Assembly: GCA_963924565.1 (NCBI GenBank)
Contig: OZ004615.1
Location: 7,936,001-8,000,000, forward strand
From: Ascidiella aspersa
Taxonomy: Eukaryota
Reading direction: 5' to 3'
DNA length: 64,000 nucleotides
Shown: positions 278 through 61,368 of the stretch, in pieces
How positions within the stretch are numbered: the first letter of the stretch is position 1
Layout: each line of letters starts with the position of its first letter
Position numbers and translations under genes: made by a program
The notes under the pieces: model-generated
Databases searched by the model: none
Seen by the model: the letters and a program-made list of their open reading frames with translations, nothing else
What the model was told of the DNA's origin: nothing

Positions 278-3200
278 CTGAACAAACAAAGGTCAAAGGT
301 AACTTATAGCCGCCTTTGTGTTGTGACTGACAGGGTTCGTGTGGCTAATTGTTTGCAAAAGAAACAATGTAATGCAGAATAAAGATTTTTAAATGTTTAT
401 ATTTTAGGTCGTCTTATAATTACAGGGTTAAATTTGGTTTGGAAATGTCACTTTATTTATATTTTTATTTATGTGTTTAAACAGAAAACCTTATGGTGTA
501 CATATATAGGTCAAACCCAAATAGACACTGGTGAAATAATGATAATTTCCTAAAATCAAATTTATAGATTGCATTTTATTTACAAGATGATTTCCAAAAG
601 CTTTAAGAAAATACCACTCTTCGATTCTGATATACTAACTTTAAAATGGTACACCATTTAATAGGCCTACTTGACACTATTGAAGCCTTCATCGCTACGT
701 TTAACAAACAAAAAAACATTGCAAAACTTACATCTGACATATATCCTAGCCTCGTGTGAAGCTTTGCCAGCCGCGTTGTGCAACGTGCACTTGATGTGGC
801 CGCTGTGAGATGACGTCACGGGTGATATGGTGCACTTGGCCACTCCGCCCTGCCGGAAAAACACGCAGTTCAAGCAATTGAAATATATAATAAAAATACA
901 TGCGTTTTAAAACCCCGTTCAACTAGACACCATGAGCTAAGAGTATAGTCAAAGTATAGCTGAATACAAATAAAGCTGTATGCTACAGGTTGGTTGTTTT
1001 TTATTTTAAAGACGTGGCGGCTCGAAACTTAAATTCTCGACGTTTTAATGCCTGGCGACAGAATGGCAATATTCATATATTAAACATATACTATGAGATA
1101 ACACGTTACTACACGCCCACACACCTAAAAACAAAAATGTATGATGACAAAAAATCAAAACTAATCCCGAAAATGCAAAGAACTACGTATTATTTTATCA
1201 AATATCAAAAAAGTTACCGCGGTGAATCACATTAGTTTACAAAAAAAAATTTTCGGGATAACTAATGTAATCACACAATGAATAATACGACCTGTTAAAA
1301 ATAGGCGAAACTTACTCTAAAACTTGTGCAGTATTGAACGAATAGGACAGTATTGGATTGGGTGATTAAGCAATGCCGTTTGAGTTTTTACGCAATTGGA
1401 GAAATGAATTGTGAATTGTCAGTTCTACACGAGACCGTACAGTCTCTCCAACATCGGGGTAAACACTTCACATATTACTCGCCACGAACCTCGAACGTGA
1501 TTGTTGCGTTCTCGACCGGCGCGTCGTTGGCGGTCCACTTCACTTCCGGTTCCGGGTTCCCACAGACCACGCACTGCAGCGCGAGCGTGTCGCCCTCTTG
1601 CGAGCGGATGTACTCGTCAAAGGGCGACTCGAACTTGGGCGGCGCAGACGGAGCCGACTTTTTTTCCGGCTTTTTCTCAGCTAAAAGTTTAATGATCATT
1701 CTTAAGTTGGCAAGACGTATAAAATCGAACAGTTATTCCGTTTGGTTATTTTCGACTTTTTTGGATTACCTTTAACCGTTAATTTTGTTATTGTTTGTCG
1801 ATTTTTATAGACAGTTTTATTACAAACGATAAAAACACATTAATTTTTGTAAAAAAAATATATAATGATATCGACAAGAGTAATTATTCTCCTCGCGTAT
1901 TCCTATAAACTAATCGTTTCATAAATTTAATCTATTTGGGCATTCATTTAATACGCCACTGGTGAAAAATGTGATTGATTAAACTACTTCTGTATCTATT
2001 CGACCGATTGCAAACTCGGCTTAAAACAATTCCAAACAAAGCGCGAAAGAATTTAATCCAAAGCCATAGTAATAACAACAACGCAAATTGACGAAGATTA
2101 TCCTGCGCCCTAAAACCCACCTTGAACGGAAACGTGGCAGGAGGTCTTGGCTTGGCCCTCGCTGTTGATCGCTACGCACGTGTACGTTCCCGTGTCCTCG
2201 TCGGTCGCTTGCTCCAAGGTCAAAGCGGCGACCCCGTCGTGGTAGCTGATTTCTATGCCGTCTTCCGGTTCCAAACTCTGCAGCAACGAATATCAAAATG
2301 AGAAGTGTAAATAAGTCGACCGAAATATAAGAAACATATCAGATCAAAAATACAAGGGCATAATTATATGTCTTCATGATTGTATGTTTTTCTCAAACAA
2401 TTTTTCAAACAGTTTAATACGTTTCAAAAACAAACAAATCAGCTGCAACGTCGATAGCTTCGGTTTTAAACCGTGTATGTTATCCTCTGTAATTTAACGC
2501 CGATTTGTTTTTGTTACAGGATACTGGGGATAGACCGATATATCGGTTTCCCATATATTTTGCTTCTACCGATATATCGATGTCAGTATTGCTAAATTTG
2601 AGCCGATATTATAGTACGAAAATATGATACAGTTTTTCCTGAAATCCTGCAAAACACCCCAAAAAAGGATTCTAGCATCACACCAAATTATATGCAAAAT
2701 AAGAGTTTATTAAATACAGGTATAAATGAAATGTTATTTGGATTTTAATTTCAATGATTAAAAATCTGACTTTATCACAATATGTATAATATGTATATAA
2801 AAAGTTGGTATCGGGTACCGGTATCATATCGACCAACGCAAACAGGTAAACGGAGCGGACAAATGTACACCAATTGTCTGATTCTCGTACCTCGTTGTCA
2901 TACATCCACCTGACCGTTGGCTCGGGAATTCCCGTCACCATGCAACGCAAGCACACGTCATTGTTCTCTACGGCTTTGACGTCACTAAGCGGCGCGGTGA
3001 ACTGCGGCGTGATGTTTGTGTTGTTCTCTATGACGAAACAAGAAAATGAGTCAAACTAAAAAAACATGATTGCTGCAGTTTTAAGTAAAACGTTGCACAC
3101 AAACCAAACCCATATGTGACGCCCATATTATGCGGTCAAGTGTTCAAATTGTTTTTTTTATCAAACAAGTTGCATTAACAGTGGACAGAAATTGCTCTTC

Positions 3201-6200
3201 TGGTGTAAACGGAAGTATAAACCGACGTTTCGGTAGCAGATACAAGACCTTAAAAGGGTTAATAATTTAGCTGGTAACTGCTGCCGAAACGTCGGTTTGA
3301 ACTTCGTTTACACCAGAAGAGCGGTTTCATCTATATTTATGTTGCCTGGTGGAGCTATTTTTAAGTTGCATTAACATTCAAGTGAATTATCTCATCAAAT
3401 TTTCGGCCAATGAATTATTTTATCAGCAAGTTGCACTGCCATTATTTTGGAGGAACTAGACAAAGAACAAACTTTTTAAAACTAGTTAGAACTTCATATG
3501 GCCACGTTTTGATATTCATGGTTATATAATACTGCCAAAATACTTTTCGAATATTGCTTGAAGTTAACTTCAAACAGATGAGAAACGAAGCAAATTTTTT
3601 TTACTCGACTTACGTTTGACTCGCACTCGACAGGCAACTGAGTCTTCTCCGCCGGGATTCATGGCACTGCACATGTACTGGCCGCTACAAGCGGTCGTCA
3701 CCTTCTGCATTACCATTCTGGGAAAAAAATATTGATATCAGTGATAACATCAACGTTATAAAAACCATACATCGTAAATGGAATTGCAGTAATCTTAAAA
3801 CAAAGGCTTTAAGCGCGTATAGAGAAGAACGATATTTTATGTATCGTAATAAAAAAGAGATTTATCTTAGTTTAAAAAAGAGAGCGTATTGCGAAAAACT
3901 CAACCGATATAACTAAATTCACAATCCCCTTGACTTATTGTTAAGTAATGCTCTCTAAATGATGAAAAAAATCAGAATGATAATAATTGCGTTCCACTTT
4001 TATACGTGAGGTTTGGATAGATTTCAGTCACATTACCTGATAATAATACAACTAGGTATCGAAAACGCCTTTTTTAAGATGCCAGCGATTCACTCATTTA
4101 CCTTTTAGGCGTTGAGATTCGTGATCTAACTCTTAATTTTATGAAAACCTACTTTGCTAGGTTTTTATTGTAGCTGCAATCGGCCTCGGAAATCTCCTCC
4201 CCATCCAGAGACCAGAGTATCTCCGGCGTGGGACTCCCCTCAATTTCGGCCTCGAGGGTCAGGGTGTCCCCCTCGGAAACTCTGACGTCAGCAAGCGATT
4301 TTGTGAAGCGAGGGCGGGTGACAACTGGTCTCGCTACAAATGAAAACCGATAGGTTAAGATATTAGAACAATACTATACTCCAAGAAATTAATATATTTA
4401 AATTGCGTGTTCTTTTTTGCCAAAATCGCAATTTTTGAACCCTAGCCCTAATTACCAAATAAAACATGATTACCAAAAGATAGTATGCGCAAGAAAAGAT
4501 AAATTAGAGGTTACAGTTTGAACCATACACATATGCAAATGACAATTGAAACAAATCACAGAAAATAGCCATTAATCATCCGAATTAAATTGCCATTATA
4601 TTAATTTTATGTGCAGGAAAGGGCAATGAAAGACAGGCTCAGCGCAAAATTACCGCGGGACAGATTTGTAATTGGTCGGAACCTTATGACTCATTTCTTA
4701 TAAAAAATGATTTTAAGAACGTTGTGGGTTATTGCATAAAAAAGCACAAATCTATCCCCAGTTCAGCAACGATTCAAAATCGCCCGACATGGAATCCAGG
4801 CTTCGACATCGTCAGTCAAAACGGCGTCCCAAAACAAACTAATCACTTGGCGGCAAATTTGTGCGCCATTAGTACAAACAATCAGGGCGCCTTAATCGAA
4901 TTAACCTTTCGGGTTCGCGAACGCCAGAGTGCGGCCGTATCGACTTTCAAAAAGCCAGAAAGGCCGGGCACCGCGGTCTGCCGATGGCTAATCCTGGAAT
5001 TAGGCGCCGCAGACGTAAACAAACATGGACCGAAAATGTGCAAAGGCCGGAAAGTGGATTAGCACTTTGGGATTGATCATTGTGTAAGCAGCAAAAATAC
5101 CGTATTTTTGACGAGGAAAAACAAGCAGCGAAATTATGCAAATGTATTTGCTGTGCAAATCACCAGTTGTCTTTGGCCAGTTTGTATTTTGAAAGCGTGT
5201 GAACACAACGTTTATTGAACACACATAGAGAAAGGCTGGCTGTACAATACGCATATGTCTGAGTTTCTTAAATCAACTTTTTTAACTAACTTGGCGACCG
5301 GTATGCTTAATTGTATGAAAACAAGCCAAGCAAAAACGTAAATATCCTTCCAGCATCCCGACTATCAATAAAAAAATAGATCGAATAAAAAAATATACAT
5401 TACACGTCGAAACAGAAACGGTTGCTACGGTAACGCAGAACATAATGTATTAAATATTTACACACAGGTCCGCACCCAAAATGGTCCCCAACAAAAAACA
5501 TTAATAAACGAATTCTGATAATCTTGATTAAATTTCGGTAACCTACGAGATTTAACGAAATTATATAGAATTTTTGTAGAAATATTTAAAAATACAATAA
5601 ATCTTGGTTAAGTTCGGATCAGCCGATAGCAGAAGTTATTTTTCGGGTAGTAAGGGTTTAACATAAACAAGGAAAACAAATACTTATTCTCGTAAATTAA
5701 TGGCTGATCAAGCGCTCACCTTTGACGGTGACCCGGCTGCTGCACTGCACCACTCCTGCCTCGTTCACTGCCTTGCAAATGTACTCGCCGGCGTGGTTGG
5801 ACTGGAGGTCGCGCAGTCGAAGGCGGGCGATGCCATTCCTGAACGAGGTGAAGACCTCATCTTCCACAATTCCGACCTCGACGCCGTTGCGCATCCACTT
5901 CAACTCCGGCTCCGGCTCCCCGGTGACCTCACACTGCAGGAGAAGCTCTTCTCCTGGAGGAATTCGAAAAAGAACATAAAACGTTTAAATCGAAAAAAAA
6001 AAACAGAAACACCAAAAGAATTAGTAAATTGCTAGTAGGAAAAAAGTGCACATAGGATTGAATGAAAATTAAAAACGCACGATTGAGCAAGAAAGCACAA
6101 AACTAAAAATCGTTTTATTATAGGGAAGTTATACGTTTAATGGAAGCTGTTTGAATTACTTTAGTCCAATTTGGACGGTTGTGTGAAAGCTTTTTTTCAG

Positions 6201-9200
6201 CTAATGTAAATATCTTTGTTCAGCGCCTGGTGCTTTCCAGCTTTCACGCCTATCAACTAAGATTAAGATTAGAGCAGGTGACTTCCAGCTTTCACGCCTA
6301 TCAACTAAGATTAAGATTAGAGCAGGTGAGTTTTCTTTACAATAGTCTAAATAAAAAGCAATTTGCAGCAAATCTCGTTTAAAAACTTCGTTTGAAACAT
6401 GCCATTTACAATCGTCCCACGTTTTACCGATGAAGCAACAAGACAAAACCGACGCTTACCTTCCAGAACCTGAGTGCTCGAGAGTCTCCTGTTAAAAGTC
6501 GGCGCCACAAAGTGTCTCCTCATGGTCATCTGACTCCTGTAGGAGGACGCCGGAGGTTGCTCAGCGATGCCGTCCTCTTGCGTGGCCTCCTGCGCCGGTT
6601 CGTGACGCACCGACGCGTTCGAGCGTGACGATGACGTCGACATGCGCGAGTGTGACGATATAGTGGAGGAGATCGACGACGTCGGCGAGTCCTTGGAGTC
6701 GTCCGGCTTCAGATTGGCGGGAATCGCGAGGTCGTTGACCTTGCGCCGCGGTTCGTCCTGGTGGTTGTCCGAAGGTGACCCCGAGCTCACGTGATGTCGG
6801 CTGTTGTCCTCGCTGGTCACGTGATTCGACTTGAGGGCAGATCCGTTGCTGGTCGCCTTCGCTTTGCCGCCCGGTGTCGCGCCTGAGCGGCAAAGAAACG
6901 TACAGTTAGAATTTACAACGTTGGAATAAGGTTTCTTGATACTGTTGTGTTTACTGCCACAACGCAAACGATTGCACGAAGGTTGGTGTCATTGCGCATG
7001 CAATTGTGGTGCATTTAGTCTGTGGATTTTACTCCTGTTTTTATAAACTTGCACAAGCCAAAGCTTGAAGAAAGTATGTTTATCGTAATTCATTTTATTA
7101 AATATTAATACAATAAATAGCTAAAATGACCAGTTTTGAAAAAGTAAACCATCACACCTTAAAATAACCTGGTATTTTATCATTGTGAAAACATTTGATA
7201 TAAATTTAACATATAAGGTATAAATATTTCTTAAAAGTCATCTGGATATGGACCTACTCGATGTCCCGAACGCCTAGCAGGGCCGCGAAGTCCAGTTTCA
7301 AAATTTTTGCTTTATTACTGAACAACTACAATAAAACCAATGAACTTATCAAGTGTTTTAGGAAAACAGCAACTAAACACATAACTATTTTTCCAAAAAA
7401 TAGTTTCTCTAGTAATTACGGTTCTTTTTTCGGCACCCAAAAAATATATTTATAATCGCGTCTTGTTGTTTAGACGAATTTACCAATCTTATTAGTTTAT
7501 AGTTTAATTTTGTGTAACAAGTAATTGGTTTGCTCTAATTGACTAGGACTTGTTTATATTTACTTGACTGGGACTTGTTATATACACAAATTGACTTGAA
7601 TTGGATTTGACTTGTTTACAACACTTGGCACTCACCCGTGATGCTGACGTCGACCGAGGCGGTCTGCTTGCCGAGCGAGTTGCGAGCGGTGACGGTGTAC
7701 TTTCCCGCGTCCCCTCCGTCGCACTCTTCGATCTCGAGGAAGTAGTCGTTGCCGTCGTTCCGTGTCCGGATGTGACCGTCGGTTCGCTCCTCGTCCACCA
7801 GTTCTCCGTTCTTCTCCCACGTGACTGTTGGCTTTGGATGACCGAGCAGCGTGCACTTCAGACACATCCTGGAACAAGGGAAGAAAATTTAGGAATCCCG
7901 TATATGTGCAAGGTGTGGGTTTGTTGGGCGTTTCAGGCTAGGAATAATCTTATCTTCCCTGTGGATTGCTAGTTTCTCTACCTCTTTTATGTGCAATGTG
8001 CAATTGTGCATGTTGGTAACTTTGTAATTCGAGCTGTTATTTCGGCCAGGCGACTTTTGGTTTCAAGTAATGTAAGCACTAAACAGGTAACTATCGTATC
8101 GGGATTTAACTTATTGTTAGTTGTTTGGATATTTTATGCCAACACAACGAAGTCTTATTGGAAAAATTGGCTTCCTATATCTTCTACATGTTGAGGTATT
8201 TATATTTCCCGAAAATCTAGAAGCAGGATTGTAGTTATTGTCCCACTATAGCACTATAGAGATGAGTATCTCTATAAGGATCAAAAATGACCCCAATAGT
8301 TATTTAAACATGTAAGTACCTATTTGGACAAAAACACAACAACTTAGAATTAGAGTAACTATAGTGTCATTTAGGTGAAATTCATAATGATTTATCAGCA
8401 CTATATAGTTGTAACATTTTATAAACACCAATTGGTCAGGTAAAGAACAACAAACGGTATTCAAAAAGCAAAAAAAACTTACAGTTCGCCAACCCCTGCC
8501 GTCTGGGGCCTGGGGCGCAGAATAAACCCGGGGCCCCTTCTGCGCGGCGGCGGCCCTCCCCCGCCAGTCTTGACCCCGGATGCCCAGGGTGATGAGTTGC
8601 CGGTCACGAGGCGGGACGTGATGCCGGTTCGCCCCAGCTTGGGTGACATCGAGGGTGAGCTGAGGTTGGACGTGCTGGGGCTGCTCTTGCTCGAAGTGGT
8701 GTGAGTGTAAGTGGACGACGATAGTTGGGAGCTGGATGAACCACGCGAGGTTGACATGTCTGCGAAATGAGGAAATGGTGTTGAGACTTGGTTTACAAAT
8801 TATGGCTGAACTTGGGTGCACTATGCAGTAATGTACATGTAGTTTGATTGATAATGAATTGCAAAGCCAAGAAAGTCGAGTAGGTCGATATCATCTTGAT
8901 TAAGACGTTTCGATTCGAGCTTTTGTCATCTTCAGTTAACAAGCTTGTATCGAAACGTCTTAATCAAGATGATGTCGACCTATTTGGCTTTGCAATTCAT
9001 TATCCTGGCTGAATCTCCTTTTATAACTTGGTATCGGATCAGCACCGATACCACCTTAGTATCGGACGAGCAACGATACTACCACTTGACATCGGCTATT
9101 GATCCAATATAAGCGTACATCCCTAATCAGTAAATGGGCTAAAATTCTCTACAGTTAATGTTGTTTCAGAAGGTAAAGTCGCAAAGTAATGTAGAAGATC

Positions 9201-12200
9201 ATTTGTTGCGAAACAAACAATTTAATGACTCTCAGGGACGCTAAAATACTGAAGTGTCAAAACAAAACGTTGACTAGAGTGGAAAGATTTAATTGCTTGC
9301 TACTTGATTTAATTTGTTTCTATAAAAGCATTCCAACAACGGTAGTCGTTTGCTACTTATAATAGCATTCCATTAACAGTGAGTGGTCGATGTCTAAAGG
9401 ACAAAAGCACATGCACTTTGTAAGTTTCTTTTCTCGTTAGTCACATAAACGTTCGCAACAACTTTATTAAATCGCTGGAACGGAAAGTCGTCACAGTGTC
9501 AGTGAAATGAACTTGCTCGTGTACCAACGAAATTTCTCGCCCTGAAGGGTACGCGTACCCCAGTTTGAGAACCACCGTGTTGTGGTAATAAGATAAATGG
9601 GTAAATAAATTATGGACAAAGAAGAGCAAAGCAAAATACCTGATTTTAAAACAATAACTGTAATTGTAAATAAAGAATAAATGAAAATTACAAATACTTT
9701 TAATGGCAATTCTTATTAGATCAAACATGCATGGAAAAAATTATGCTTGGTTTCTGTTAGTTCGCAGTTTAAACGTTTCATTTCAAAATAAAATTGTAAA
9801 CATACAAATATAGATCTGTTAAAATAGGGCCATGATTCGTCTGTTCAGCTCAAAAGTGAGATTTTAAATGTTTACATAGACAGAGAGATTTTCGGATCAC
9901 GCTATAAGAGCTTGTTTGAAGCCGCGATAAAGATATCGAAGCCTTGAGAGCCACTTGGATCTGTTAGTTTGCCTATTGCCCAACGACTTAGACATTAGGC
10001 TCCATCGTCGGCAATACGATGCCTTGGTATTTCAACAACGGCTTTTACCGCATCCATTCGACTCGCCATCTGAGAAGCACGTCTTTCCGTCGAAACCCAT
10101 AATCGGCGATTTCTAGGCTTGGATATCATGCGGTGCCACGCGTAAGACGCCCATGCAATACATTATCACATTCAGACGGTAAACGGAGAATCTTCGACGC
10201 TCTTAATGCACACACGAAGGTTTCAAGTGTCTACATACACACCCGGTCTGAACACTCGATAATCTTGTAACCGGGCATAACTGGCATTCCATTCGAAGGC
10301 AAGTCTGTGACACTAGTGCGGCTGGATAAAGAAGCTCGAAAGGAATATACTACAAATAATACGCTAGCATTTGGCTTTACTTGAAAATTGCTGCTTGATA
10401 AAAAAAAAGTTGGTCGCCCGCCAAAACAAACTTAGGGCTTTAAAAAATGCGGTAATTTTAGGCTTTAGGTGGGTTGTTTTGCGTCGGCGTCTATAGTGGT
10501 TAAATCACATTTCAGCTAGAGGCAAGTATGGCGATGCAGCATTTTTTCGGAACATTGAACAAAGAAATTAGATGTTGTTCAAAGCCAACTGCGTCAGAGC
10601 ATACGTAAATCGACTGTTTTCGCGGACGATTACGAAATGTTAAGACAAGCTCACCTCGCTACCCACGAAGTAGAAACTGTTTCTACTTTGTGGCACATGG
10701 CGTGCAGTTTTGCGGCCTTTTTTCTTTGGAGGACATTTTTTTGAAAGCATTACAAAGTGTCGTGTTCTCTCTTCGCCTTCACGAGTCGGCGACAAAAATC
10801 CGGAATCAAAACACCGGCGTATCTCATTGCTTTTAACCGGCACGGCGGCCTGGGCTTTAGTCGGACGCAAAACACCGCTCGGCAGAGTGGTTTACGATTC
10901 GGTTCGACGGATGCTCTAACGACACCGGGGGTTGGGTGACTCACGGCCTTGAGGCGAGTTTACACGGCGATGGGTCGTTTGCTGAAATATCAAGTGACCG
11001 CTGCAATTTGGCGACGGGGGGGATTTCGTTTCACGCACAGTTGCGCCCCGCTAACGCATTGGCATGTCGCGATTCGTTACGGCCAAGCGATTTGGGAAAA
11101 GTTTTTTTGTGCGTATATCATGTTTCGCGTAGAAGCGAATGCCTTTGGTGGGCGTTGAAAGCGTTGAACAGAGGCATCAACGAATTTTATCAGAAGTAAA
11201 ATAATTCATTTTTGGTGTTTGGTTTCCGGGTGACATTTTTGTGGCGACCATAAAAAAATGAATCGGATAAATTTCCTAGTTTTATTAAATTTCCAAAATA
11301 GTGAACACGTGGGTGGCCTTAACGAATACCACAAGTTCACAACCGATATGATTTTCGGTCAAAGAGCGAAACCAAGGCTTGGGTTTAAATTCTATCAGAA
11401 ACCAATCTCGAGTTTAGAGAAAATTTATGGAATTTCTTAGATTGCGCAAATCAAATTTAGCATTTCTATCGAAACATTAGGAGTTCATAAAACGCGTTTT
11501 CCCAAAGAAGCTTAATCTATTATTATTTAAGCATCTGAAATAAAATAGCTAACTTAATGACGTTTTTGTCACAAAATTCAGTTTTTCTTAACATCATGGA
11601 CTTGTTCAAAGGTTACATTATTATTCATAAGTTACGTAAACTGATGATGACAAATATTTATAGCAACGTCTTTTTTCGAGATTATGTCGATTTAATCGAC
11701 CTATTTGACTTTGAAATTCATTTTCAAGCTAATTTGCAGATTCCTTTAGGTTACCTAAAGTATGTTATTCACAAATTTGACAAAAAATGGCCTTCTTCCT
11801 TAGTACCAACCTTGCAGATGCAGCTGCGCTGAGCAGGAATCGGATCCGACGTGATTGGAGGCCGTAATGGAGTAAAGTCCGCCATCGGCCGGTTCGGTTC
11901 GCGATATGACAAGGCTGTGGGTGCCGTACACCTCCATTATGCGCACTCTACTAGTGGCACTCACCACCTTACCGTCCTGCAATAGAACAAAAACACAGGG
12001 CGTTAGGGCGATTGACTGGTTACTACATTTCAATTGCATTTGATTTGGACAAAAGGAAGGACTCGCCTCTTACAGAATGGGAGAAGTTATCGCACAAATG
12101 AAATTCATATTTTTACCCAACTATTTTAGGATGTAAACTCGGACCGACGTTTGGCAACACACTGGCTGACCTCAGCATACAGTAAATTTTAAACAATTTA

Positions 12201-15200
12201 AGTGAAAACACTGGATAGGACATATTAGAAATCTGTTTCCGAGTGAAACACTGGATAGGACATATTAGAAATCTGTATTTCGCCTAAACTGGCATCATCA
12301 GTTAGTGTAAGTAAAGTAAAATACATAATAGATCATGTCTAATCCTGTGTTTCACTCAGGTTTTCAAAGTTTCAGTTTTGTTTATGTACGCGTCAGCGTA
12401 CCAGTGATTGACAAGCAGAAACCTGCTGCCAATGGTTTGGATTCCATAAAAATACACCCTTTTATATAAATATATTCTCTAAGTTTAATGTGTTGCTAAG
12501 TAACTTGTTATTACAACAAAGGAAAATTTAGAAACTGAAAAGCTCATGCGACAAAACATCCAATAAACTTAGCCGTTTCTAGATCAAACCAAAATCGCAT
12601 ATTTAAAGCGGGGATTAGAACGAAATTCTTCAGTCAAGATCACGTTCCCCTAAATCTGCCCCCACGGTGCTAATCTACTTTGGAAACAAACATTCCCAAT
12701 CGATCAGTGTTTGCCGTCTGTCACTCAAGAGCCAACTCTTGGCCGGCCTAACGCCAAACCGCGGAAAGATTTGAACTCGATTGGACCGAATCGCAAACAA
12801 ATTGCTTCCCGTAGCATGCGAAGAAGCATTTTTTCTTCCGTTTTCGTATTTGCAGCGGAATTCCCACAGAACCGGACGGTGACTGCACTACTTAAAAAAA
12901 GGCGCAAGTGCTGCAACTTTTCAACGACTTGAAGTATCCCAGCAAATTGAAACGTGTTCAAGCCATGCATTCAATCTGCCTTAAAATACTATAACTGATA
13001 TTAAAAAACCCTGAGCACAAACGCTATCAACGAATATTTTAACTTGCACTTACGTTTACTGTCAAATGCTTAAAAGATTTTAGTCCGACAAAACTGTTCT
13101 GTTTTAATACTCAAAAACCATCACAATACGTTAGCTGCCAACTACAGTTCATTAGGTCTAATCTAAGCTGAACAAAATCCCGGGAAACTTGATACGAAAG
13201 ACCAGGCAGGCGGTGGTCGTCGAAATCTAGATGAACTCGCACGGCAAGTTCGACAAAGAACTAATTCCTTCTAGAAACTTTTTCTGGCGTGTTTTTATCA
13301 CCCTGGGTTAAGAGAGGCCACCTTGCCACAGATAGTTTAAGTTTCTACTCAATCTTACTGTGTTAACCGCATAGAGCCACACTATATAAGGGCTGTTACC
13401 AAGTTTCTTTCTCATTTAACACGTATTGTTGGTTAGCCATAGATTAATTGTCAGTGCTACTAAAAAAAATAATAATGATAAAAGGCTACATAGTCGCGAA
13501 CGGTTTTTCACCAAGGGGAATTTGTTAAAAATAAACAACATTCGCTCTTTTAAGCAATGTCTCATCGAGTTATTCGACCAAGATAGATTCTCAGGTGTGC
13601 TGCTTAACTTATCGTGGGAAAATAAATCATTTTATTACAACTAGACATGCGACTTAAATAGAGCACTATCAGTTTAAAAAACTGATTAAATTGGAACATT
13701 CACTTATTGGCTTGCCATGAAGGTCCATTGTCACGTTATAAATTTTTTGTTCTGTGAAAATGCACCGCAAACATTTTTTGATTTTTTACTGTGCAAGCTA
13801 AAAAAATTGGGAATTACTAATATAATTCCTGAGTTCAGTAGATACTAATACGTTCAGTAGATACTAAGATCTAAGTTTGAAAGCTGTACAAATCTGTAAC
13901 TTAGGCTATCGAAGTTAAGCACAGGAAATCTATAAAATGAATTTAATATAACTGCAAAGTCCACATTAAACAGGTAAAAAGTCGCGGGTAAACCATCTCT
14001 ACCCCTGTTTACTTTCTCTGTCGCCTCGCAAACCACACTAAATAATGAAGGTAAAAGACAGGCGCTACTGCTGACAAAGTGGCAAGCACAAACTCATCTA
14101 CTTTCTTGCGAGTTGGCGCAGAGCATCATTCACGAATGCCGTCTTTGTGCGGGGGAGGTTATAACGAGAAGCGTAATTAACGTGCCGGTGCCAAATCGCG
14201 GCTGGCGTCCAGATCAACTCGAACCTGCGATTTAATTTGCGCCGCCGCGAAAATAACTGCGCGCTCGCCGCTGAACCCACAATTAACATTGTCGGGTCGA
14301 CCACACACTCGGTAGCGAAAGATGACAGTCTGTGTTTAGGCTGGGATGGACGAAATGTAAGCCAATGGTCGCTCTGTAAAATTCCACCTGTTAAAATAGA
14401 CAATTTTTGCGATCCGAAATGGACGATTTTTACGACAAGAAATAGGTATCGTTTTGTTGCGGCCGAAAATGTAACATCTCTGTTACGAAAACACAACCAT
14501 GTAAAGCAAAATATAAATGTAATTTCCGAATGTAAAAACAAGAACGTCGGGCTATGTGAATGATGTTCTAATTTTTTTTACGGTAAGCCTTTTTAAAGGA
14601 AGCTGGTGTTTTCTTAGATATTCAAGCGATAACATTTCACTAGTTTGGATAATGTGTGAAGGATAACATTCCGCTAGTTTAATAATATATAAATGTTTAA
14701 CAATCTACCAAAGATGGGTTGTGCAAAAAGTGCCTCTAAAAAAATCTTACTAAATGCATTATTTCAATCCCATTTGCAACAACGCTGTTCTATCTTATCT
14801 TGTAAATCTGCACAGCACCGTATTTATCGCTCAGCCTCCAAAACGACACAGCCCTCAACGGAAGCGTTCGGCATTCTTTCGCCTCTGTAGATCAGTAAAT
14901 CGCCGGGTCTTAGACGCCCGGGTGCGCCTAATTGCAGGGTGGATGCTTATCGAGGCTAAGCAATCTATACATTCCGACACGAAATTCGCGTAGCTGTTTC
15001 GCTCCCGTCTCCGGCCGCGGTCCGACTTGTTTGAAAAACGAGGCCTGAGCGCGGATCTCTAATTTCACGTTCGTCAACTTTCCCTGCCCGAATATTCCGC
15101 CTCGCAATAAACGTGACTGCGCAAGTAATCTGAGTTTGCATATTGGCGGCTCCCCTGCATGGTAAAGTTGTTGCAACAACACTTCTATCTCTCAACGCAA

Positions 15201-24200: not shown

Positions 24201-27200
24201 GTGTACACAATCTCATCATCATTGAATTTTAATCCAACGGAAGCTGCCCAAGATGTATTACAAATTAGACCCACCTCTTTATATTAGATCAACCACCTTT
24301 AATCATCCTGGTTTTAAACAGTCCCAAGCAAGAAACTGCCATTTTTCGCTTCATTTGCCTAAAACATGTAAGACTACCCTTATCTAAAATGCACAAAGCA
24401 TCAGATTTCATGCTAACTTAAGTGCATTCGATACTATTGAGAAAGACGGTACTGATAATAATTCAGGGTGGCCTAAAGTCGTTATAAGTCCGAAAAGTCA
24501 GTAATGTAGATCCGTCTAATTCCCCTCGTGTTTGGTTACATTCTAACTAGGACTTCGTTCGTTTATCTAAATCCATACGATTGTCTGTTCGTCACTGAAA
24601 AACGCCAACATAAACCTAAACGCATATACAGTATAATGCAAGTAATAAATTTCGTCGCTCTAACCCAAGATAAAGTTAATCATTGAGTTTTAATTGGTGT
24701 AATTAAGACTGGAGTACAACCTTTAAACAAGCGTTGTAAACAAGAATTATTTGCAAATAATTACAGTTCTACAACGTAATCCAGTGTCGGTCCCAATTCC
24801 TGTTTTTTAAGTAATAAGATAGTCATTTGCCTTCAAAAGTAAGTGAGGTTGTAATTTGGCAAATTTTGTATATTAATTTTGAAGTTAAAACAAAACAAAA
24901 TACTTTCATGCTGTTTACATCACTGTGACAATAAAACTGTGAAAAAAACATTTACCCAATATAACCATATAGGTTGTCTAACGAGGTACATTCTAAACCT
25001 ATAATGTAGCCGAAACGTATATTTTAAATCAAAGAGAACATTGTTGTTGCAATTTGTTGAATATATGATTTATTTCCACTGAACAACTTCAGTTAAGCAA
25101 TCTAACCACAAACAAACGGTGCTGTCAAAATAAAGCAGGACAAATGAGGAATTTGGGTGACCGCTAAGTAGTTTTAAGAGACCGCAAGTGTTTCATTTAA
25201 ATACCTCCAGTTTTAAGAGACCGCAAGTGTTTCATTTAAATAAGTCCAAAATTTGGGAAACCGCTGGAGAAATTTGGGGGACCGTTTCGGTCCACACAAA
25301 ACACCTTAAAAAAACACTGAATTCATATAGGTTGTCTCACTACCTCAAACCTATGGTTAGTCTGATAAAGGTACTCACCCTCTTCCATATAACAGTAGGC
25401 TTCGGTCTTCCTTCTACTTTGCATTCGAAGCGGATCCGATTGCCGAGTTTGCATTCGGCCGGAATGAGGCTCTGACTAAAAGCTGGAGCGCGATCGCCCA
25501 TTGCGGATGAGGACTCTTTTGCTGCAACAGAAAAAATAAACATGAGCAATCTTAACCCAAGCTGCAAAGCATATTTATAGAAAAACATATGCTTTATTTC
25601 TTGGATTTAAAATGACGTTTTACTTTCTGCAACATGATACTGCTCTAAGTAAAACCTGAAGAACAAAATTGGGTGCAAAACATTACATTTTCTTATTAGC
25701 TTTTTGAGATGCTTTTTAAAAAGTTTGATGTTTAATTATAAAATAATGGACGTTTACAGCAGGGATTACCAGTTTAGAAAATAATAAAGATATGGTAAAC
25801 AATTTCTACAATCGGGAATTTTTGTTGGACGAGATCATATAATCCAAGGAACGGCAGAATTATAAAAAGTATTGGAAATAATTTTGTGTTTATAACAAAC
25901 CTGTAAGTATTAATTCAACAGAGCAGGAAGCTTTTCCAGCCGAGTTGTTGGCCACGCAACGATAGGTACCCGCGTCGGTCGCTCTTAGGTCTCGTATTTC
26001 GAGCAACGATTCTCCCGAATCGAGATTCACTACGTTCACTCGTTCGCTTTCGCGCAACTTAACAGCGCCCTGTAGCGGAAAAAGATAAGTCGGCGTTATT
26101 TGCCGGCATCGATTTCAATCCCGTCTATATTTTCAATCCAGCTGTAAGCATAACTTTTTGTTGGGTGATTGAGTCTAGTTTTAAATACGATTTTAAATGG
26201 CGCAGGTGTTTAATTTTTCTAAAGCCTAGCGAATAATTTGTAATTATAGCTAAAAAATACTACCCTAAATATATATGTTAATTTATTAGATCGAAGCTTT
26301 TCACACTATAATTATGCATCTAAAGAAATTAAAGATTCCCAAAATGAACGCGACAACTCGAGAAAATCTGTTAATTAACACAACCAGAAAAACGGCTTTT
26401 AACTTTCGACCAAAAAGGTCAAAAATAATTGCCAGCAACACATCTTGTTGGCACTAAATTCGATTTGCAAGTGAACTTCGGCGGATAGGACTTGTATTCA
26501 CCTGAAACACAGCAACAGGAATAAGTAATATAACACTCAACGTGACGAAATATCTGACCTGAGAAGGCAGTTTTAACATTACGTAACCGGCCAAGTGCGA
26601 TGTGTTACTATTGCAAATGCCGTGACACAGGGCCACAGGCGTACTTCAAAGAGAAACAACCCACAACAATTTTAACGGTTTGAGCATTGCATTACGACCG
26701 CCGTGAACTCAACTGATAGGAATATACAGAATTTAAAACCTTTAATTAAGCTAGTATATAGGCCCCGCTAAATACTATTTACACGAGTCGACAATTTAAG
26801 AAAGACACGTTTAGGCAATTTCCTAACAGGTTTCGATTTGTTCCAATTATGTAAGATAAAACGTAGGTAGTTCAAGCAAGAGTTTTGCAAAACAAAATCG
26901 TAAAAAAAACTTGCCTTAGTTCTAATCTGAGGTTGTGATCAAAACTGTTAGAAACAGAACTGCCAAATTGTGGTAGGGTATTTTTAAAATTCCTATAAAA
27001 TAAGGCTATTGTTCAGATATCTGCAGAACATTAAAGTATGTGTGATTGCCACAAGGTTGACAAGCATTTCTGCAAGTCATTAAACGTTATATAAACTCAC
27101 ATTCTGAAAATAAAAGGCAGCCGACTCAGATGAATTTAACACTGCATTTAAACGACGCTCTTTATTGGGGTTCACCAAAATTCCGAAAGATGTAGCTTTT

Positions 27201-30200
27201 TCTGGTGCGTGCAAAATCAGTTAGCCTAATTACGCTGCAGAACTTAGTAAGTGAGTTAAAGCCCACGATATGGGAACAGCAAAATGCCACGCTTGAAAAG
27301 GCACACGGGGGAGCATCTCAAGTCTTATCGATGCTCGGCACGGCCGTCTAGCTTTCTTGAACATGGCATTCTATCTCGCTGTACAAATTCCAGGTTTGTA
27401 GGCTTAGCGGACACATGGTAGAAGCCCAATATTGGTTTTGGGCGTGGGCTTTCTACAGTTTACGGTTCGTTCAGCGTGTAGGGGCGATTAAGCACTCATC
27501 GAGCGCTTGCTTATGAATTGAACATTTTTAATCGAATATTAGTCTGACAATTACATTTGTAGTAATCAATAGACCGAATTAAGGCTTTCGCTTGATTGTC
27601 CATATGTGACGTTTTATGGATAAGCGTTCCTAATAGCTAAAAAGCAAATTGCCTACTATTTGATTTAACTACGCCCCATTAAGGTTTTTTTTTATACATT
27701 GGGCCAATTAGAATGCTCTCCACACATGCCTTAGCGGGTCGGTCTGAGGCTTTTGGGCGGTGTTAGCGGTTATACTTCTACATACAATAGGTATCTCAAT
27801 TTTAAACTTTTGCAATAAAACCATTTCTTCTAATAAACAAAACCTTAAAACGGCAGTATTAGGGCAAAATGTGTCAGTAATATGCAACAATTTGTCGACA
27901 TGCGCAAACTGTAGAAAGAATTGTTAAGGAATCAGCTTGATATCCTTGATCAAATAGGAATTAGCAGTTTAACTATTGGGCACAACGCTGAATGAGGGGC
28001 TATTGTTATACAGGTGACACAGATTTACGGACTAATCGCTTTGTTCCCCCTATGACGGTGCTTTAACTGGCTTAATGCGCCGTACCGGCTTAGGTATGTC
28101 CTGTTCCGATACAAAGGCTGTTGTGTTTAAAATTACCCCCGTTGCAACAAGCGCGCAGGTTTGCGTATATCAAAGACGCCATTGTGCCGCTTCTTTAACT
28201 TTTAAATTTGCGCTGACAGGTATTATTACAAAAAAACAACTTACTAAGCCAACAGAAAGGTCATAACTAGCTACAAATTTGTGTAACACAAATCGTACGC
28301 CGAGCCGAGGTAATATATAAGACTATAGAGATGGTAGCGTTGTATAGGTAATATTGAAAACAGCTAAACTTATGTAGAACGTTTACAGGACTTTACCAAT
28401 TTAATAAATGGCTTGGATATCACAAATACCTCTAAAGGCAAACTTATAGCACCATACTCACAAGTGTTGTACGTATGGATTCCATTGGGATATTTTATAA
28501 TATAATGTTATAGTAGCATACTGAGTACTAGAAAAAGCAACGTGTAAGACCACCAGCAAAACAACTTCGCAACTGTTGTAATAACTTAGTATTTGGCTTT
28601 ATATTCTATTTTAATTTGGGCTTTAATTTTCACCCAAAACAAAATTAACTTGTCTTGTAGTAAATTTTTGATGAAAAGTCCGGATTGAATTAAACGTCAG
28701 AAGGCAGAACTAGCCAAGCGAACCGTTTACCGCAAATTAAACTTCGGGGTCACGAAGCTGCAGCCACGAAGCGACGTGAAGGTGTTAATATTGCTTTACA
28801 GCCCGGGCGCAATTAAACTAGAAACAACAAAGCCACTTGACTCACTTGGCACGACTGAAATGGAACAACGCAAGGACGGAAAATAAACAGAAAGGTCTCA
28901 GGTTGTTCACTTCGTCTCTCTTTTAGAGCGAAGCACGACACAAGCTTTCTGGTTAGAAATATAGTCGTAATAAAATTCAAACTGCTAATATTTGTGCAAG
29001 CACTATACAGCGTCTACTAGTAATCAGCTAAACATTACTGTGTGCCATAATGTATAGCCAACCGGTATTCTCATGCTCATTATTTACTAATTAATTATAT
29101 AAACAAAAGCTCAATCAAGTATTTTTGAGTGTCTTATTTATACTTTTTAGTATATAAGCTGGGTAACGCATTCTAGTTTCAATTATTAACCCTGATGAGA
29201 TCAGCTGGTATCTGCTGCCGAAACGTCAGTTTATACTTTGTTTACACCAGAAAAGTCTATTTTTATTTATTGATATGTTGCCTGGTGGAGCTAACTCTAT
29301 TTTTAAGTATTTTTGAGGTTTAACACTGATGCACATGGTAATTATGGTGCGCTTAATTTGTATCTGTCTTTCTTTTGCTAATTAATTCGGCACCATTGTT
29401 AATTTTATTTTTGTTGTAAAAAATCGCAAACATTTTCATGCTTTGAATCCAACCCATCTCGTTTTAAGGGCGCAATTATTTTTCATACAATGAACGGTGG
29501 TCGTCAGCAAACAACAAAACAGATCTTCGAACACACATCGCAGTAAAAGGTTTAAAGTAAAACACTTGTAAGAACAACATGTAGCTTTCAAAATACCCTC
29601 ACATGGGTTGATATTTTCGAACACGTGTGAGGCACTTTACGCCTCGTGAACTTATAAGGTTAGACATTTGTAAACGGCGAAGGTTTAGAGTTAAAAAATT
29701 GTAAAATACTGTGAGTTTATGTAGAAAGCATTTGGGCATTTTAACAGAACACCGGCGTGTATATCAGATGCGACACATTTATGGCAAAAGAAACGTGTTT
29801 CGATCGTGTTTGTCCCAGAAATAAGCAACAGTGCGTTGTCGCATTCACCAAGAGCAAAAAAAACGACAAAATGCCATCCTTTCGCAGATCTGCCCAGGAT
29901 AACGTTAACTGAAACGAACATACACGGCGGCTTAGAACAGCGAGATCGGCGCCTGAATACGAGCAAACCGAGTATGCCACAGCCTTGCAATAGCCCCAGG
30001 GCTGAACGGCAAGTGCATCGACTAAGTAACCACTTAATCTGGCTCAACGACCAACCGTAGGACGGCGTGATGCACCCTAGCTGGTTACGGCACGACACCT
30101 GATTTAGAAGTGAAGTATAAGCCGTAAACAAATCACATCACGCAAGCAGGACGCGGTCCTGGAAACTGTCACATTTCGGATGATTTATGGTCCCGAACGA

Positions 30201-39200: not shown

Positions 39201-42200
39201 TGTCGAGCGCAAAAAATGTCAAGCGCAAATATTAAACATTGCGTTATCGTGTTTCAAAAGATGTAACGACACACAATACAACGGCAATATTGCAAAAACA
39301 ATATAGTTTCGCGCAAAAAAAGTTCGACTCCCCCTGTTGCTATAACCTGTTATCATATATAAAATATGGATGAAAAATAGTCCGAAAGGGCGATAGCTTT
39401 TATCGTTTATCTATAAGTTAATTTAATAGGACGGTGATACCATGGATTTTCTAAAAGGGAACTATAAGATTCGCGCGCAGCGCGAAAATTTTTGCAGTTT
39501 TAATGTTAAAGTTGGCAAAAAACAGAGTTTGTATGTAGGAATTATGCCTAACCCAAACGAAACCATTAAAATCACTGCAAAAATTAAAAATATATAAAGT
39601 CGAGCTCGCGCCCCCCTTAGAATTCCTTGGCGCACCCCTAGGGGGGCGCGCCCCCCCCCCCCCCGGTTAAGAACCGCGAACCGCTGCTTTAACTATTTTA
39701 GCATATTATACAAAATAAGTAAGCAGAATTAAACTTTACCAAACGCCATACCAGGAAGACAAAGAAGCCATAAATTAAACAAAACCCAAGGTTCAATGCG
39801 ATAGTTGTTGTTTCTTCACCAGCTGGTCGATACATACTACAACTACACCGCTCACTATTAGTTTATTACTACATATATATTAAACCAGCTAACAATTAGC
39901 GTTTTATTATCTTGAACAAGATAAGTGTTACGTCATAAACGTGCGAAACCTCAAGTTAAAGGTAACTAAAACGCAGCACGGCAAATTACCCAATCTGAAA
40001 GTTTAAAAAGTTGAACGTTTTCGAAATTTATACGTATGCTGAAGTTAGTCGCGTACCACCTGAAAGACTCTCGCGTACCACCGGTGGTACGCGTACCACA
40101 GTTTGGGAACCACTGCCTTACACCCTTGACTACAGGCGCCGAACGGCAATAACAATGCTCATTCGCTTTACGTTTATGGGTGATAATTGTCCGTTCGCTC
40201 GATGGGAAACTTATGACTCACTTGCCACGCCTACACGATAGCAAACGATGACCAATTTCGGCGAAAGTCAATGTTGTGCGAATGCCAGAGGACAGAGTCT
40301 GTCGCCTTATGGCGTGCAAATACCGAAAATCGCTATAACGTGCGGAAAACACAAGGGAAATTTCCTAGCAGCAATAAGTCCCCAATCAAAATTACCAAAG
40401 GTAAGGAAAATATTTAAACAATAAACTTATTAGTAGAATAAAGGAAAAAATATTATCCTTTTACACACAATAATTATGTATTTTTTCATCATGGCCAATT
40501 TTATAAAAATTGTGCGAACAACGCGATCTTCTATAGTTTTTTGTTAAGCACAATTTTTGTTACACTTTGTCGACCAAACCCTCTATGAAACGTCATGGAC
40601 TTCAATACAGACTTTGGAACAGCAATAGATAATTTTCCATGTTTACTACGATTTATACGTAAGTTGATCACATTTTAAAGAGAAGTTTTTAGAACTCTCT
40701 GGAGTCTATCAGTGAATCACCAAAAGAACAACAAACGCTGCCTTTTCGGCTTTTGTGGTCGTTGCCCACATCCCATTGGACGAAAAGAAGAATGACTCAC
40801 TTTTTGCACGCTTCATGCCAATAAACAATCGCGCCCTTTTTTCAGAAAAGGACAACGTTGCGCGAATGTAATTCGACCATGAAAGGAGTGGGGGAGGGGG
40901 TACAATGCTATTACACCTAAACGCGTGAAACAAAGATATTGCAAAAAAAATAGTAATTAGAACAGTAGAAAATAAACTTTTTCTGGTTTACAATAATTGC
41001 ATGACATGGCCCCCCCCCATTTGTTTGACAGATTAATTTTGGCTGCAAAGAAAAACGCTTTATGCCAATAAACAATCGCGCCCTTTTTTCAGAAAAGGAC
41101 AACGTTGCGCGAATGTAATTCGACCATGAAAGGAGTGGGGGAGGTGGTACAATGCTATTACACCTAAACGCGTGAAACAAAGATATTGCAAAAAAAATAG
41201 TAATTAGAACAGTAGAAAATAAACTTTTTCTGGTTTACAATAATTGCATGACATGGCCCCCCCATTTGTTTGACAGATTAATTTTGGCTGCAAAGAAAAA
41301 CAATTATAGCTACCAGCAGTATAGGATGCCAACATTTTGCTGGTAAGGTAGGGTTTCAAACGCTTTACGTCAGTGACACTTTCAACGTACTGTTTGTGTA
41401 TACCGATATCGGGATACAGAGGGAGAGGGATGCCCGATAGAATCCGATTTGAGTCATGTGCGTTACCAGGTTGTAATATTGGTACTTGTCTGCTATGGTC
41501 GTATCAGTGTTCGATACCAAACTGACAAGGGAATTGCAGCCTTGGTTTAACATCCCCTACAGTGTTTTCTTTCCTAATTATTTTAGAAAGAAATGAACAA
41601 CGTAAAGTAATAATTTATGTTAAACTCAAGCCATTTATAACCTGTAATAAGTTAATCTGAAACGATTTAATTTCATCTATTGTCCTAATATATAGAAATG
41701 TGGTTATTTGCTTCGGAACAGATGAGTGAATTTTGATATCGGTATCTGTATGGGTATCGGAACAAAATACGAAGTATATAGGACATCCCTACTTCATAGC
41801 ACACCATTACCACCAATTTGGGGGTGAATACACTATGACTTGATAGGGATTGTTTATTTTTAGAAACACAGAATCTTATAGCTTGTTAAGCCTTGTTGCA
41901 GTTTTACGATGGTTTTATTTTAAAGGAAGTCACCTGTTAGAGCTATAGATTTCAAATTCAGATCGTGTAGCACGTTTTGTATTGCAAAAATATAAAAAAA
42001 GCGGGACAGTGTACACTGTACACATACATGGAACAAGTTTTCATATACAAGAAGGCTAGCCCAAAACGACATTACATGTTTAGGTTTGGCTTATAAAGAT
42101 GAACATAAATTATACTTAATGCTGCGCCTCTAAATGTCTTACTGTATTTCGCTTCTGTTTGTCCAATTTAATCGTTTTGTCATTACAGAAAGAAATAGAG

Positions 42201-45200
42201 TAACAAATTCTAAAGGACAACTCAAAAACGGTAACAATTGTCACATGCGCCTTTTTATTATTTAATTTTATGGGTGGGTTACTATTACCATTATTAAAGC
42301 ATATTTCGGAGCAATCCACATTAAGAAAACGTCACATTTTAACAATTTCTTTAAAACGTCCAGATGGGTAGTGTCAGTTCGGCTCCACCCGTAACCTAAA
42401 ATGTCTAAGTGCGGGCAACGACCCTAAATTGTCACGTGACGATATCGATACGACAATAATCGTCTTGAACCGAACTGAACTGTCGATATTATCTAGAATC
42501 GGCGTTTGATTTCAAACGCTGGCGCTGAAATTGGCCTGATTTGTTCCCTGTGAGAGACTCAATCCTAACGCTATGGATCAAAATTGAAACAATATCCTCA
42601 AAAATACGGCCAGGAACAACATTTTATCATTTGCATCCCGGGTGCGATTTGTTAGGAATTTGAAAAAGTATAGGTTTTTATTTACGTTTTAAATAACCTA
42701 AAAAAAACCTTGATTCTAACAACAATAAAGATGTTGCTCGTTTTAAACAGTAGACATTTATCATTATGAACGCTATGCCATATTTTATAATTTTTTACAA
42801 GTACCTTGTATTGCAGAGGTTCCCAATCGGATACCGCGGTATTATGGGGTGAAATTTCTTGACCCAAAGGTTCTACGAGGTATTTTGAAATCTTTTAAAT
42901 CTGAGTTTTGCTTTTTTGGTAAACCTCTCAATACAACTTTTTGTATACTCTTAGTGTATAATTTAAAGTACTCCTAGATCGCAAGGAGTACAAAAGTACA
43001 AAAAATCCGATGACATTTCTACATGTGAGTTAGTGCATGTTGTTCCAGTCCCGTTCAGATAGTCTTTACAGTATTTTAAAAATTTCTAGGAGTGCCGTAA
43101 GCTATAAAAGATTAGAAGCCACTGTCATGTAGCGTAGCAGTTACGTGATGTTTTTTTGTCCAATCTGACAAAATTATCGAGTCAAATTTACGCAAAACTC
43201 ACAGTATCACATATAATGACTTAGTATACTATATCAAGCGGAAATATGTCGCCACTTCTGATAAATAGCGTTAACCAATTCATTTAAAAGGTTATAGCTT
43301 ACAAAAACTCCTAAGAATGCATTACTGTAAAATTTGCTTCTACATAATGGCGTCTTGAAACTTGCAATACTCTATATAAAATAGTTAACTAAAATAACAA
43401 CAAACATCAAAGCAATATACCCAGGGTGACAGCAACAACATAATATTTAAGGTTTACACCGGGACTCTTCAGAGGGGCTAACTGAAATCAATTCGTCAGC
43501 TGAGGATTTCGTGCAAGCAAGGCAGGTTAGAAAAACAATGGGCGAGGTTTGAAATATATGGGCGAGGTTTGAAATCACGACCTCCGGTCTCTTCCGAGTC
43601 GATCGCAGTGGTGCACAAGTGTGTATGAATGTTCAAGTTAAAACATGATTTAAATAATAAATACATAAACACATTTACCTTGAACCAGTCGATGCTGGGA
43701 AGAGGAGTAGAAAGGCGACATTTGAAGGTCACATCTTTGCCCTCTTCGGCCACTTTGGATTGTGGTTTAAGAGTGAATTGTGGCGTTCTCTGCGCCCGGT
43801 AGCTCATGTCTCCCTCTTCTGCCATAAGGACAAAAAACAACAAAAATATTGGTACGGTGGTGTGCAATCTAATAAGTAACAACTTTAGGACGATTATTTC
43901 TTTGATTAAGAAAATGCTTAGCTGATACTGTTTGTCATAGGAAAAAGAAAAACAACTATAAAAAAAAACAAAGAAAAAGAAGACGTTGGTCATTTTAGAA
44001 AATTGCTCAGCAAACAGTTTGCAAAAAATAAAGATCTAGCATATTTATCAATATAGGAAATACTTTACTACACAGTAAAAAGACACAGTAAACACTGTTT
44101 AGTACATTTGTCGTAATTAGAGATACAAAGCTTCTGGAGCAAAAATGAAGTTCGAGCTGATCCTATCGATTGAACCAGGCCTGCGTGATTAATTCTGCCT
44201 GATCTCGTATAACCATATATTCCTCTAATGAAGATATAACAGTTAATATTGACAATTTTAAATAGCTCACTACAGTTTTTGTAAATTTGGTAATCGATGT
44301 TTGTTTTGATTTGAAATAATTTTGACAAGTTTTGACTTCTTTGACAAGTCAAACAATAGTCGCCCGGGTAACATTCTAATCTAAACGATACCATAGTATC
44401 GAAGGGTACACACAACTAATTCTTACAGGGGCGCGGGATCTCGTCCAATATATAATTTTTTTAGTGATTTTATTTGTTACAATAGATGGCAATTCTGCCT
44501 TCCTGCTGTACTATGCTTTTAATCAAAATAAAAGTTACACTCATTTTCCAACTATTTTTAATATACATCTTTTATATACTACAATTGGTAATCTTTGATA
44601 ACTCGATACTATTTTTGCGTGAATTGATAATGCTGCAATATGGCCATTGCATCGCGTATCGTCATACTTTTTGAAACACGGTCAACGCAATGTTTTAAAA
44701 TTGCAATTCGCGCGCGATATTTTTACTTGCTTTTTATATTTAGCCTTACAACTGTGGATTCAATGCTCACAATATGTTTGTCAAAATAGATTAACAAAAG
44801 TCAATATGTTGAGCACGAGAAAGTTTTTATGCCCAATGCGTCAAGTCTATTAAAATAAGGTTTAACCAAGTTCAAACAAATAAACGTATTTTTTCGAGCT
44901 TTAAGAATTAACTTTAGAATTTTTATGTTGTCTCAGTGATATGTAATCACAAAATACCGATTTGTTCTTGGTTTTATACTTATTTAATTTCTGAGGTGGC
45001 GCATGGCACAGGACAAATTTTATCAAAGAGGGAGCGGAGAAACAAAAACTAACAACCAATGCACTGGAGGAAGCAAAGAGCGAAGATATTTAAAGTTATA
45101 GGCGGCTAAAACAAAAAAGCACATTCGTGAAAAATAAAGCTCTTAAAATTTTTAAGAGACCGATTGATAAATGACGCGCCACGGGTCAAGCATCATCCCA

Positions 45201-61003: not shown

Positions 61004-61368
61004 CGATTTTAGAAAGTGACAGGTATAGGTAACTATCCGAACTATGCATCAAGTCATAGAATGCTGTTTTTCGCAATGGCTGTTAGGTAAACCTAGCTTT
61101 GGACTGCAACATATCACAAACCCTGATCGCTGTATTATCTCACCAATAACGGCAGCATGGCGTATTGAAAGCCACAAATGCTCCACAGACACGATTTTAG
61201 AAAAGTGACAGGTATAGCCAGCTATCCGAACTGTGCATCAAGTCATAGAATGCTGTTTTTCGCAATGGCTGTTAGGTGAACCTAGCTTTGGACTGCAACA
61301 TATCACAAACCCTGATCGCTGTATTATCTCACCAATAGCGGCGGCTTGGCGCATTGAAAAGCCACAAA
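61004..61368. repeat. Tandem duplication, period about 188-190 bp
   Basis: CGATTTTAGAAA(A)GTGACAGGTATAG…GCCACAAA at 61004 and 61192. Confidence 0.93.

Follow-up and report, generated by a model that had tools for sequence, protein, structure and literature searches.

Minimal hammerhead ribozymes are known from the pLTRs of metazoan Penelope-like elements (PLEs), for which no cleavage of monomers and low cleavage of dimers were reported (PMC4209133). In the Poseidon element of Anolis carolinensis (PAc; Frangieh et al. 2024) hammerhead cleavage is described as protein-assisted and as dispensable for insertion in vitro (PMC11167929). PLE insertions are also known to carry a 30-40-bp tail at one end (PMC3846280, PMC8557442), which in PAc was traced to two reverse-transcription start sites (PMC11167929). 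Retrozymes are described as tandem arrays in head-to-tail order, with repeats 150-450 bp long, canonical hammerheads and RNAs in circular form (PMC7229834). Our literature search for Penelope hammerheads in ascidians found none.

Here we analyse a short insert within a 64,000-nt stretch of the Ascidiella aspersa genome (contig OZ004615.1, positions 7,936,001 to 8,000,000; hereafter the window). Very probably it represents the 3′ end, truncated on its 5′ side, of an autonomous Penelope/Poseidon-type retrotransposon. Target-primed reverse transcription (TPRT) that stopped after ~175 nt likely placed it in an AT-rich intronic site, and the hammerhead it carries is today probably inactive. The relevant features are, in window coordinates:

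29117-29129, plus strand: left copy of the target site duplication (TSD), an exact repeat of 13 bp, the commonest TSD length in the insert's family, family A (9/15)
29130-29304, plus strand: very probable 5′-truncated 3′ end (pLTR and tail) of an autonomous Penelope/Poseidon-type element of an older subfamily, matched to the pLTR of the full-length copy L062
29188-29231, plus strand: minimal type I hammerhead motif (stem I 29188-29191/29228-29231; core 29192-29198; stem II 29199-29219; GAAAC-GUC 29220-29227)
29275-29308, plus strand: tail, the first 34 nt of the element ORF (ATG, MLPGGANSIFK), with its last 4 nt within the right TSD
29305-29317, plus strand: right TSD copy, an exact repeat
43679-43816, minus strand: predicted host exon lying upstream of the insert; it encodes the first half of an I-set Ig domain (Pfam I-set positions 1-36) and ends at a GT donor
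25902-26069, minus strand: predicted host exon lying downstream of the insert; it encodes the second half of an I-set Ig domain (Pfam I-set positions 40-89) and follows a phase-compatible AG acceptor
3167-3376, strand unspecified: second family A insertion, a head-to-head pair with a 14-bp TSD (3167-3180, 3363-3376)

The insert, its host gene and its parent element

The insert is bounded by two copies of AAGTATTTTTGAG, an exact 13-bp direct repeat (29117-29129 and 29305-29317) that cannot be extended and encloses 175 bp, as the preliminary description had reported; by arithmetic at 38% GC, such a repeat has a chance of ~6e-8 per position pair. Its length, modal for the family, also supports the retro-insertion with TSD that had been proposed. 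The insert is a solo tailed arm that ends at +34 relative to the ATG and overlaps the TSD by 4 nt. No joint skipping it was found in X1, X2, X6 or X7, or among the joints listed for X3-X6, at low flank depth; with no empty allele observed, no pre-insertion site confirms the TSD. Of the solo arms, 57 could be followed to both ends and only 8 of them had a detectable TSD, so the layout of the window copy is a minority form.

The insert sits among minus-strand exons for Ig domains. The two halves of an I-set domain, encoded on separate exons of compatible phase, place it probably in a 17.6-kb intron of an Ig-repeat gene, antisense to the host, in agreement with the orientation first described. 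This gene, which we take to be of the muscle Ig-repeat type, occupies positions 1-44000 on the minus strand and encodes numerous I-set Ig domains together with a stretch rich in serine. The intron around 28304-28720 is highly polymorphic: the haplotype of a second sample has 172 other letters in place of 211 bp there, with many differences just downstream. Contigs from this divergent haplotype span both insert junctions, which fits an old insertion. Local tandem duplications are also seen in the window at 40808-41301 (period ~247 bp) and 61013-61359 (~189 bp).

Searching the 308-Mb genome with the insert returned 771 first-look candidates, 40 of which were scored and proved ~90% identical. Exact matches numbered 115 for the 44-nt hammerhead, 150 for a 35-nt stretch and 382 for a 17-mer (0 for reversed controls), and read depth was ~2,115 at the motif vs ~6 on the flanks. 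Copies share sequence upstream of the insert's left end for 0.05-2 kb, collinear with an ORF whose translation shows first a reverse transcriptase and then a GIY-YIG-type domain (YVDD; AVY-EIPCGGCSAT-YIG). L062, the only one of 12 long fetched stretches with the whole ORF intact, consists of a 38-bp inverted stub, a pLTR with hammerhead, a 790-aa ORF and a second pLTR with hammerhead, the two hammerheads being 2,633 bp apart; its open frame runs uninterrupted for 815 codons (790 aa from the ATG). The suspected Penelope link is thus borne out by copies that run into a coding region for reverse transcriptase and endonuclease and by an intact full-length element.

The window insert is 91% identical to the L062 pLTR over 167 nt, and its tail sequence (29275-29308) continues in L062 into the 790-aa ORF; the earlier view of the insert as non-coding fails for these 34 nt, the start of the element's ORF, and stands for the remainder. 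At 91% identity to that pLTR and 9% divergence from young copies, the window copy is old. C29159 and T29171 are common to older copies, which assigns it to an older subfamily.

The L062 protein matches RVT_1 (E=3.1e-8), with YVDD and DKG motifs, and has the C-terminal motif series AVY-EIPCGGCSAT-YIG..R..H..H..E..N. A Pfam scan of it gave no GIY-YIG match and a PDB search with the ORF gave 0 matches at E<=1. Its nearest Atlas clusters (score 0.96-0.98) carry RVT_1, HTH_animal, DUF8422 and, in a minority of members, GIY-YIG; feature matches scoring 0.95-0.96 point to clusters with PF01541 in 11-24% of members, and the two Atlas comparisons count as a single line of evidence. As judged from the motifs and from clusters in which PF01541 is a minority, the endonuclease is GIY-YIG-like. 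The linker between reverse transcriptase and endonuclease has no CX2-5CxxC zinc-finger motif, and by its motifs the element is assigned to the Penelope/Poseidon clade. Family A is young, retains an intact full-length copy and constitutes a new family of EN+ Penelope-like elements.

Two near-full-length copies, L069 and L070 (G000:C5), have similar but not identical internal deletions; in L069 the hammerheads of both pLTRs survive, at a distance of 1.5 kb. A splice-acceptor-like pyrimidine tract ending in CTTCTCAG lies ~40 nt before the core in family A (L062), and the same kind of tract ending in CTTCTCAG lies ~9 nt before the core in a second family, B (L149, L153, L156). In Drosophila virilis Penelope an intron end near helix I is described (PMC4209133).

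The hammerhead motif

All elements of the loopless minimal type I hammerhead that had been claimed are present: CTGATGA (29192-29198), GAAAC (29220-29224) and GTC (29225-29227), read in RNA as CUGAUGA, stem II, then GAAACGUC. Helix III is the loopless palindrome ACGT and the predicted cut falls after C29227. The motif has the core CUGANGA...GAAA...UH with a palindromic, loopless helix III. Within the window, the loose pattern CTGANGA..GAAA has 6 matches vs 3.1 expected, which is not above chance, and at E<=1 an Rfam scan detected no hammerhead family, its sole matches being miRNA-type hairpins at 8881-8982; the reality of the motif consequently rests on evidence from the families.

A genome search with the core-only pattern gave 430 matches vs 3 for the control. 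The first 30 of these 430 motifs belong mainly to two other families, and in them 111 of 120 stem I cells are paired vs 45, 41 and 21 when slid; the cells count related copies, so that the effective evidence amounts to three independent stem I sequences. Stem I covaries across the families, which have different sequences there and keep the pairing. Preferential conservation of the core was not found among 30 family A loci, chosen by a 17-mer outside the motif: changes amount to 27/337 in the core (8.0%), 10/226 in the loops (4.4%) and 82/766 in the 5′ flank (10.7%). This is a weak test, with a result to be expected since dead copies decay neutrally. Of the two signs of a ribozyme proposed beforehand, conservation among genomic copies was thus not observed and stem covariation was, for stem I and between families.

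The window copy has two mismatches. The one in stem I (A29228) had been recognised; the one in stem II (A29200) had been missed. It keeps 8 of 10 stem pairs and lacks the pair adjoining the cut site, whereas young copies have 10 of 10, with stem I closed (4 bp) and stem II closed (6 bp, one bulge). Family A reads carry G in 1996/2117 cases at the stem II site and in 1902/2113 at the stem I site (94% and 90%), and A occurs at the stem II site in 1 of the 100 copies listed. The hammerhead-compatible fold is predicted at -11.0 kcal/mol in L062 vs -2.3 in the window copy; even in L062 it is not the minimum-energy fold (-11.0 vs -13.0). Single-strand folding of the motif is uninformative (z -1.3 to +0.4), and the best loop II pseudoknot pairings in families A, B and C (3-6 bp) all fall within shuffles (p 0.30-1.0). 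At the window site, an RNA run with 47 reads on a 4-kb stretch has no read-end pile-up listed; over the insert its reads lie on both strands and come mostly from other copies. As an old copy with rare mismatches in both stems, the window hammerhead is probably inactive.

Other hammerhead-like sequences occur in the window. A family B head-to-head pair lies at 8848-9004 (1,966 first-look candidates for this family), with a motif at 8908-8935 on the host sense strand and 5/5 stem I pairs. Two degenerate hammerhead-like stretches are found on the minus strand at 12130-12180 and 12278-12301, one family A-like, the other with CUGAUGA, a short stem II and GAAA and no GUC. Genome-wide, an abundant third minimal-hammerhead family, C, has its own stem I and stem II (L144-L173, e.g. 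L146, L158, L166) and supplies 19 of the first 30 matches of the core-only pattern. For families B and C, tblastn with the family A protein gave no match within 1.5 kb of 50 loci.

Insertion ends, inverted pairs and competing readings

About 100 fetched loci, merged by genome position, yielded 139 distinct pLTR arms. Their 3′ ends fall into two classes that together hold 121 of 139: 59 at -12 to +8 and 62 at +20 to +40 relative to the ATG, the tailed ends concentrating at +22 to +36. Seven of the remaining arms continue into the ORF and 11 end elsewhere. The 5′ ends spread continuously from -20 to -2,080, mostly between about -220 and -40, with no fixed boundary. An apparent 5′-end hot spot at about -138 was an artefact of a short indel in the first reference and disappeared when other real copies were used as references.

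Head-to-head pairs numbered 33, with both ends classifiable in 28. One tailed and one tail-less end were found in 27 of these 28; the exception has two tail-less ends and no pair has two tails (binomial p=2e-7 against independent 50:50). The tailed arm is the longer in 16/28 and the shorter in 12/28, counted with a slightly wider end class. Likeness to the tailed insert guided the choice of part of the sample; this raises the share of tails but cannot account for their being paired with tail-less ends. Under strict junction rules, TSDs in 15 pairs measure 11 bp (1), 12 (2), 13 (9) and 14 (3) and are 77% AT. Junction overlap averages 1.8 nt vs 0.8 in a blunt-join simulation, an excess that AT-rich target choice could produce without pairing.

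The second family A insertion in the window is such a pair, with a tail-less arm on the minus strand (about 3181-3267) and a tailed arm on the plus strand (3269-3362). The stem I pairing GG that had been pointed out in it is present, but neither arm has an intact CUGAUGA core. Family B behaves like family A: by eye, 20 inverted loci have a tail of ~32 nt on one side in 17 cases, on neither in 2 and on both in 1, and their inner junctions vary, which indicates that the pairs are rebuilt at each insertion.

These data can be arranged into a likely history of the insert. The element's endonuclease would make a staggered cut of ~13 nt in AT-rich DNA, reverse transcription would start at the downstream (tail) site, ~30 nt into the ORF, and would terminate early, after ~175 nt, with repair filling the gaps. 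The single antisense copy would then have decayed neutrally, with the loss of one pair from stem I and one from stem II. By analogy with reports on other PLEs, the motif of master elements is likely a ribozyme of low activity, dependent on dimer formation or on the protein of the element, and would be relevant only in tandem master transcripts.

The insert had been attributed to a non-autonomous, retrozyme-type family, and one may equally imagine a retrozyme- or SINE-like family of ~175 bp, propagating as its own unit by means of borrowed Penelope protein. Most arms are indeed short, with 5′ ends between about -220 and -40, short copies are re-mobilisable in principle, and an origin from pLTRs has been argued for animal retrozymes (bioRxiv 10.64898/2026.07.22.740005). 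We nevertheless consider this reading very unlikely, and the attribution is not upheld: upstream extension is variable and reaches continuously to -2,080 with no common 5′ boundary, longer copies are collinear with the ORF and an intact full-length copy exists. The motif is moreover minimal, vs the canonical type I of retrozymes (PMC7229834), and a check for a tandem array at the site found none. None of the 100 exact hammerheads listed (of 115) has a same-strand neighbour within 1 kb, the closest being 1.5 kb apart. Identity with non-LTR retrozymes was rejected on the missing tandem at the site and the presence of a coding master, collinear with the intact L062.

That the 13-mer might not be the TSD of one short reverse-transcription event, and the insert instead the remnant of a longer or inverted insertion after deletion or recombination, or a product of DNA-level copying, would suit the 49 of 57 solo arms without a TSD and the missing empty allele among the joints listed. 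Such an origin is very improbable given a repeat that sits exactly at both junctions, has the modal length (13 bp in 9/15) and is overlapped by 4 nt of tail like other junctions; an internal deletion would in any case still leave a Penelope insertion. Barely credible is a copy that the host retains for a regulatory role in the intron and that is antisense to spare the pre-mRNA, the purpose suggested in the preliminary description. Its antisense position in the probable intron and the contigs over both junctions in the divergent haplotype agree with it. Against it stand the 9% divergence from young copies with one break in each stem, the lack of in vitro cleavage reported for single minimal motifs (PMC4209133) and the 50:50 chance that governs the orientation of one copy. 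At 8908-8935, between exons of this gene, the sense strand carries the motif of another family, which argues that orientation shows no selection; with such a motif in the gene and two broken stems in the window copy, the suggested purpose is not supported.

A truncated end of an autonomous element therefore remains our reading of the insert, and the one-tail pattern allows us to speculate further on how such ends arise. In an asymmetric two-primer integration, a dimeric Penelope protein would use the two strands of a single staggered cut as primers on a pair of pLTR RNAs, one per start site, held together through the ACGU palindrome; the hammerhead would then serve as an RNA dimerisation handle more than as a nuclease, and the window insert would be a one-sided product. 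We offer this as a tentative scheme that is itself unlikely to be correct. The pattern has been stated qualitatively in print, and we found no count of it in the main-text passages searched; a search for twin priming together with Penelope, inverted copies, tail and TSD found nothing relevant.

Comparison with known systems

The family A element resembles described EN+ Penelope/Poseidon elements in its single ORF that combines reverse transcriptase with a GIY-YIG-type domain at the C terminus (PMC8557442, PMC3846280). The likeness to the published descriptions extends to DKG and CCHH-type motifs, to a linker without CX2-5CxxC, to pLTRs formed from a partial tandem, 5′ truncation, an inverted 5′ copy, a 30-40-bp tail and a TSD. 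The TSD is mostly 13 bp in family A vs 8-10 bp in the Adineta Penelope-like examples described.

Its hammerhead shares with known PLE minimal hammerheads the type I layout, the absence of loop 3, palindromic positions 15.2-16.2, the pair G10.1-C11.1 and a 4-bp helix I; also shared are one motif per pLTR ~3 kb apart, opposite-strand pairs and a majority of single truncated copies. Family A differs in having no extra base between A9 and G10.1 and a bulged U after the second helix II pair, whereas families B and C do have an extra U between A9 and G10.1. The window copy departs from the known examples by its two stem mismatches. With non-LTR retrozymes, as they are described, it has in common small size, a type I hammerhead and the link to PLE pLTRs (PMC7229834, bioRxiv 10.64898/2026.07.22.740005).

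The locus itself matters little, being one of hundreds of dead Penelope ends. The family is of more use, as its insertions supply counts that bear on how Penelope elements integrate, with a pair of start sites, a single tail in each inverted insertion and a stagger of 13 nt. The closest parallel is PAc, in the account of which two discrete 3′ ends ~30 nt apart likewise define the tail, targets are AT-rich and the hammerhead lies near the ORF start (PMC11167929). In PAc the ORF is described as starting in stem II, with reverse-transcription start sites ~111-118 nt into the ORF (PMC11167929), whereas in family A 46 nt separate the cut site from the first ATG after it, with the 3′ ends on either side of this ATG. 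PAc priming is described as non-homologous (PMC11167929), whereas family A junctions overlap by 1.8 nt vs 0.8 nt for the blunt-join null. The integration counts from family A are directly testable in a PAc-like in vitro system.
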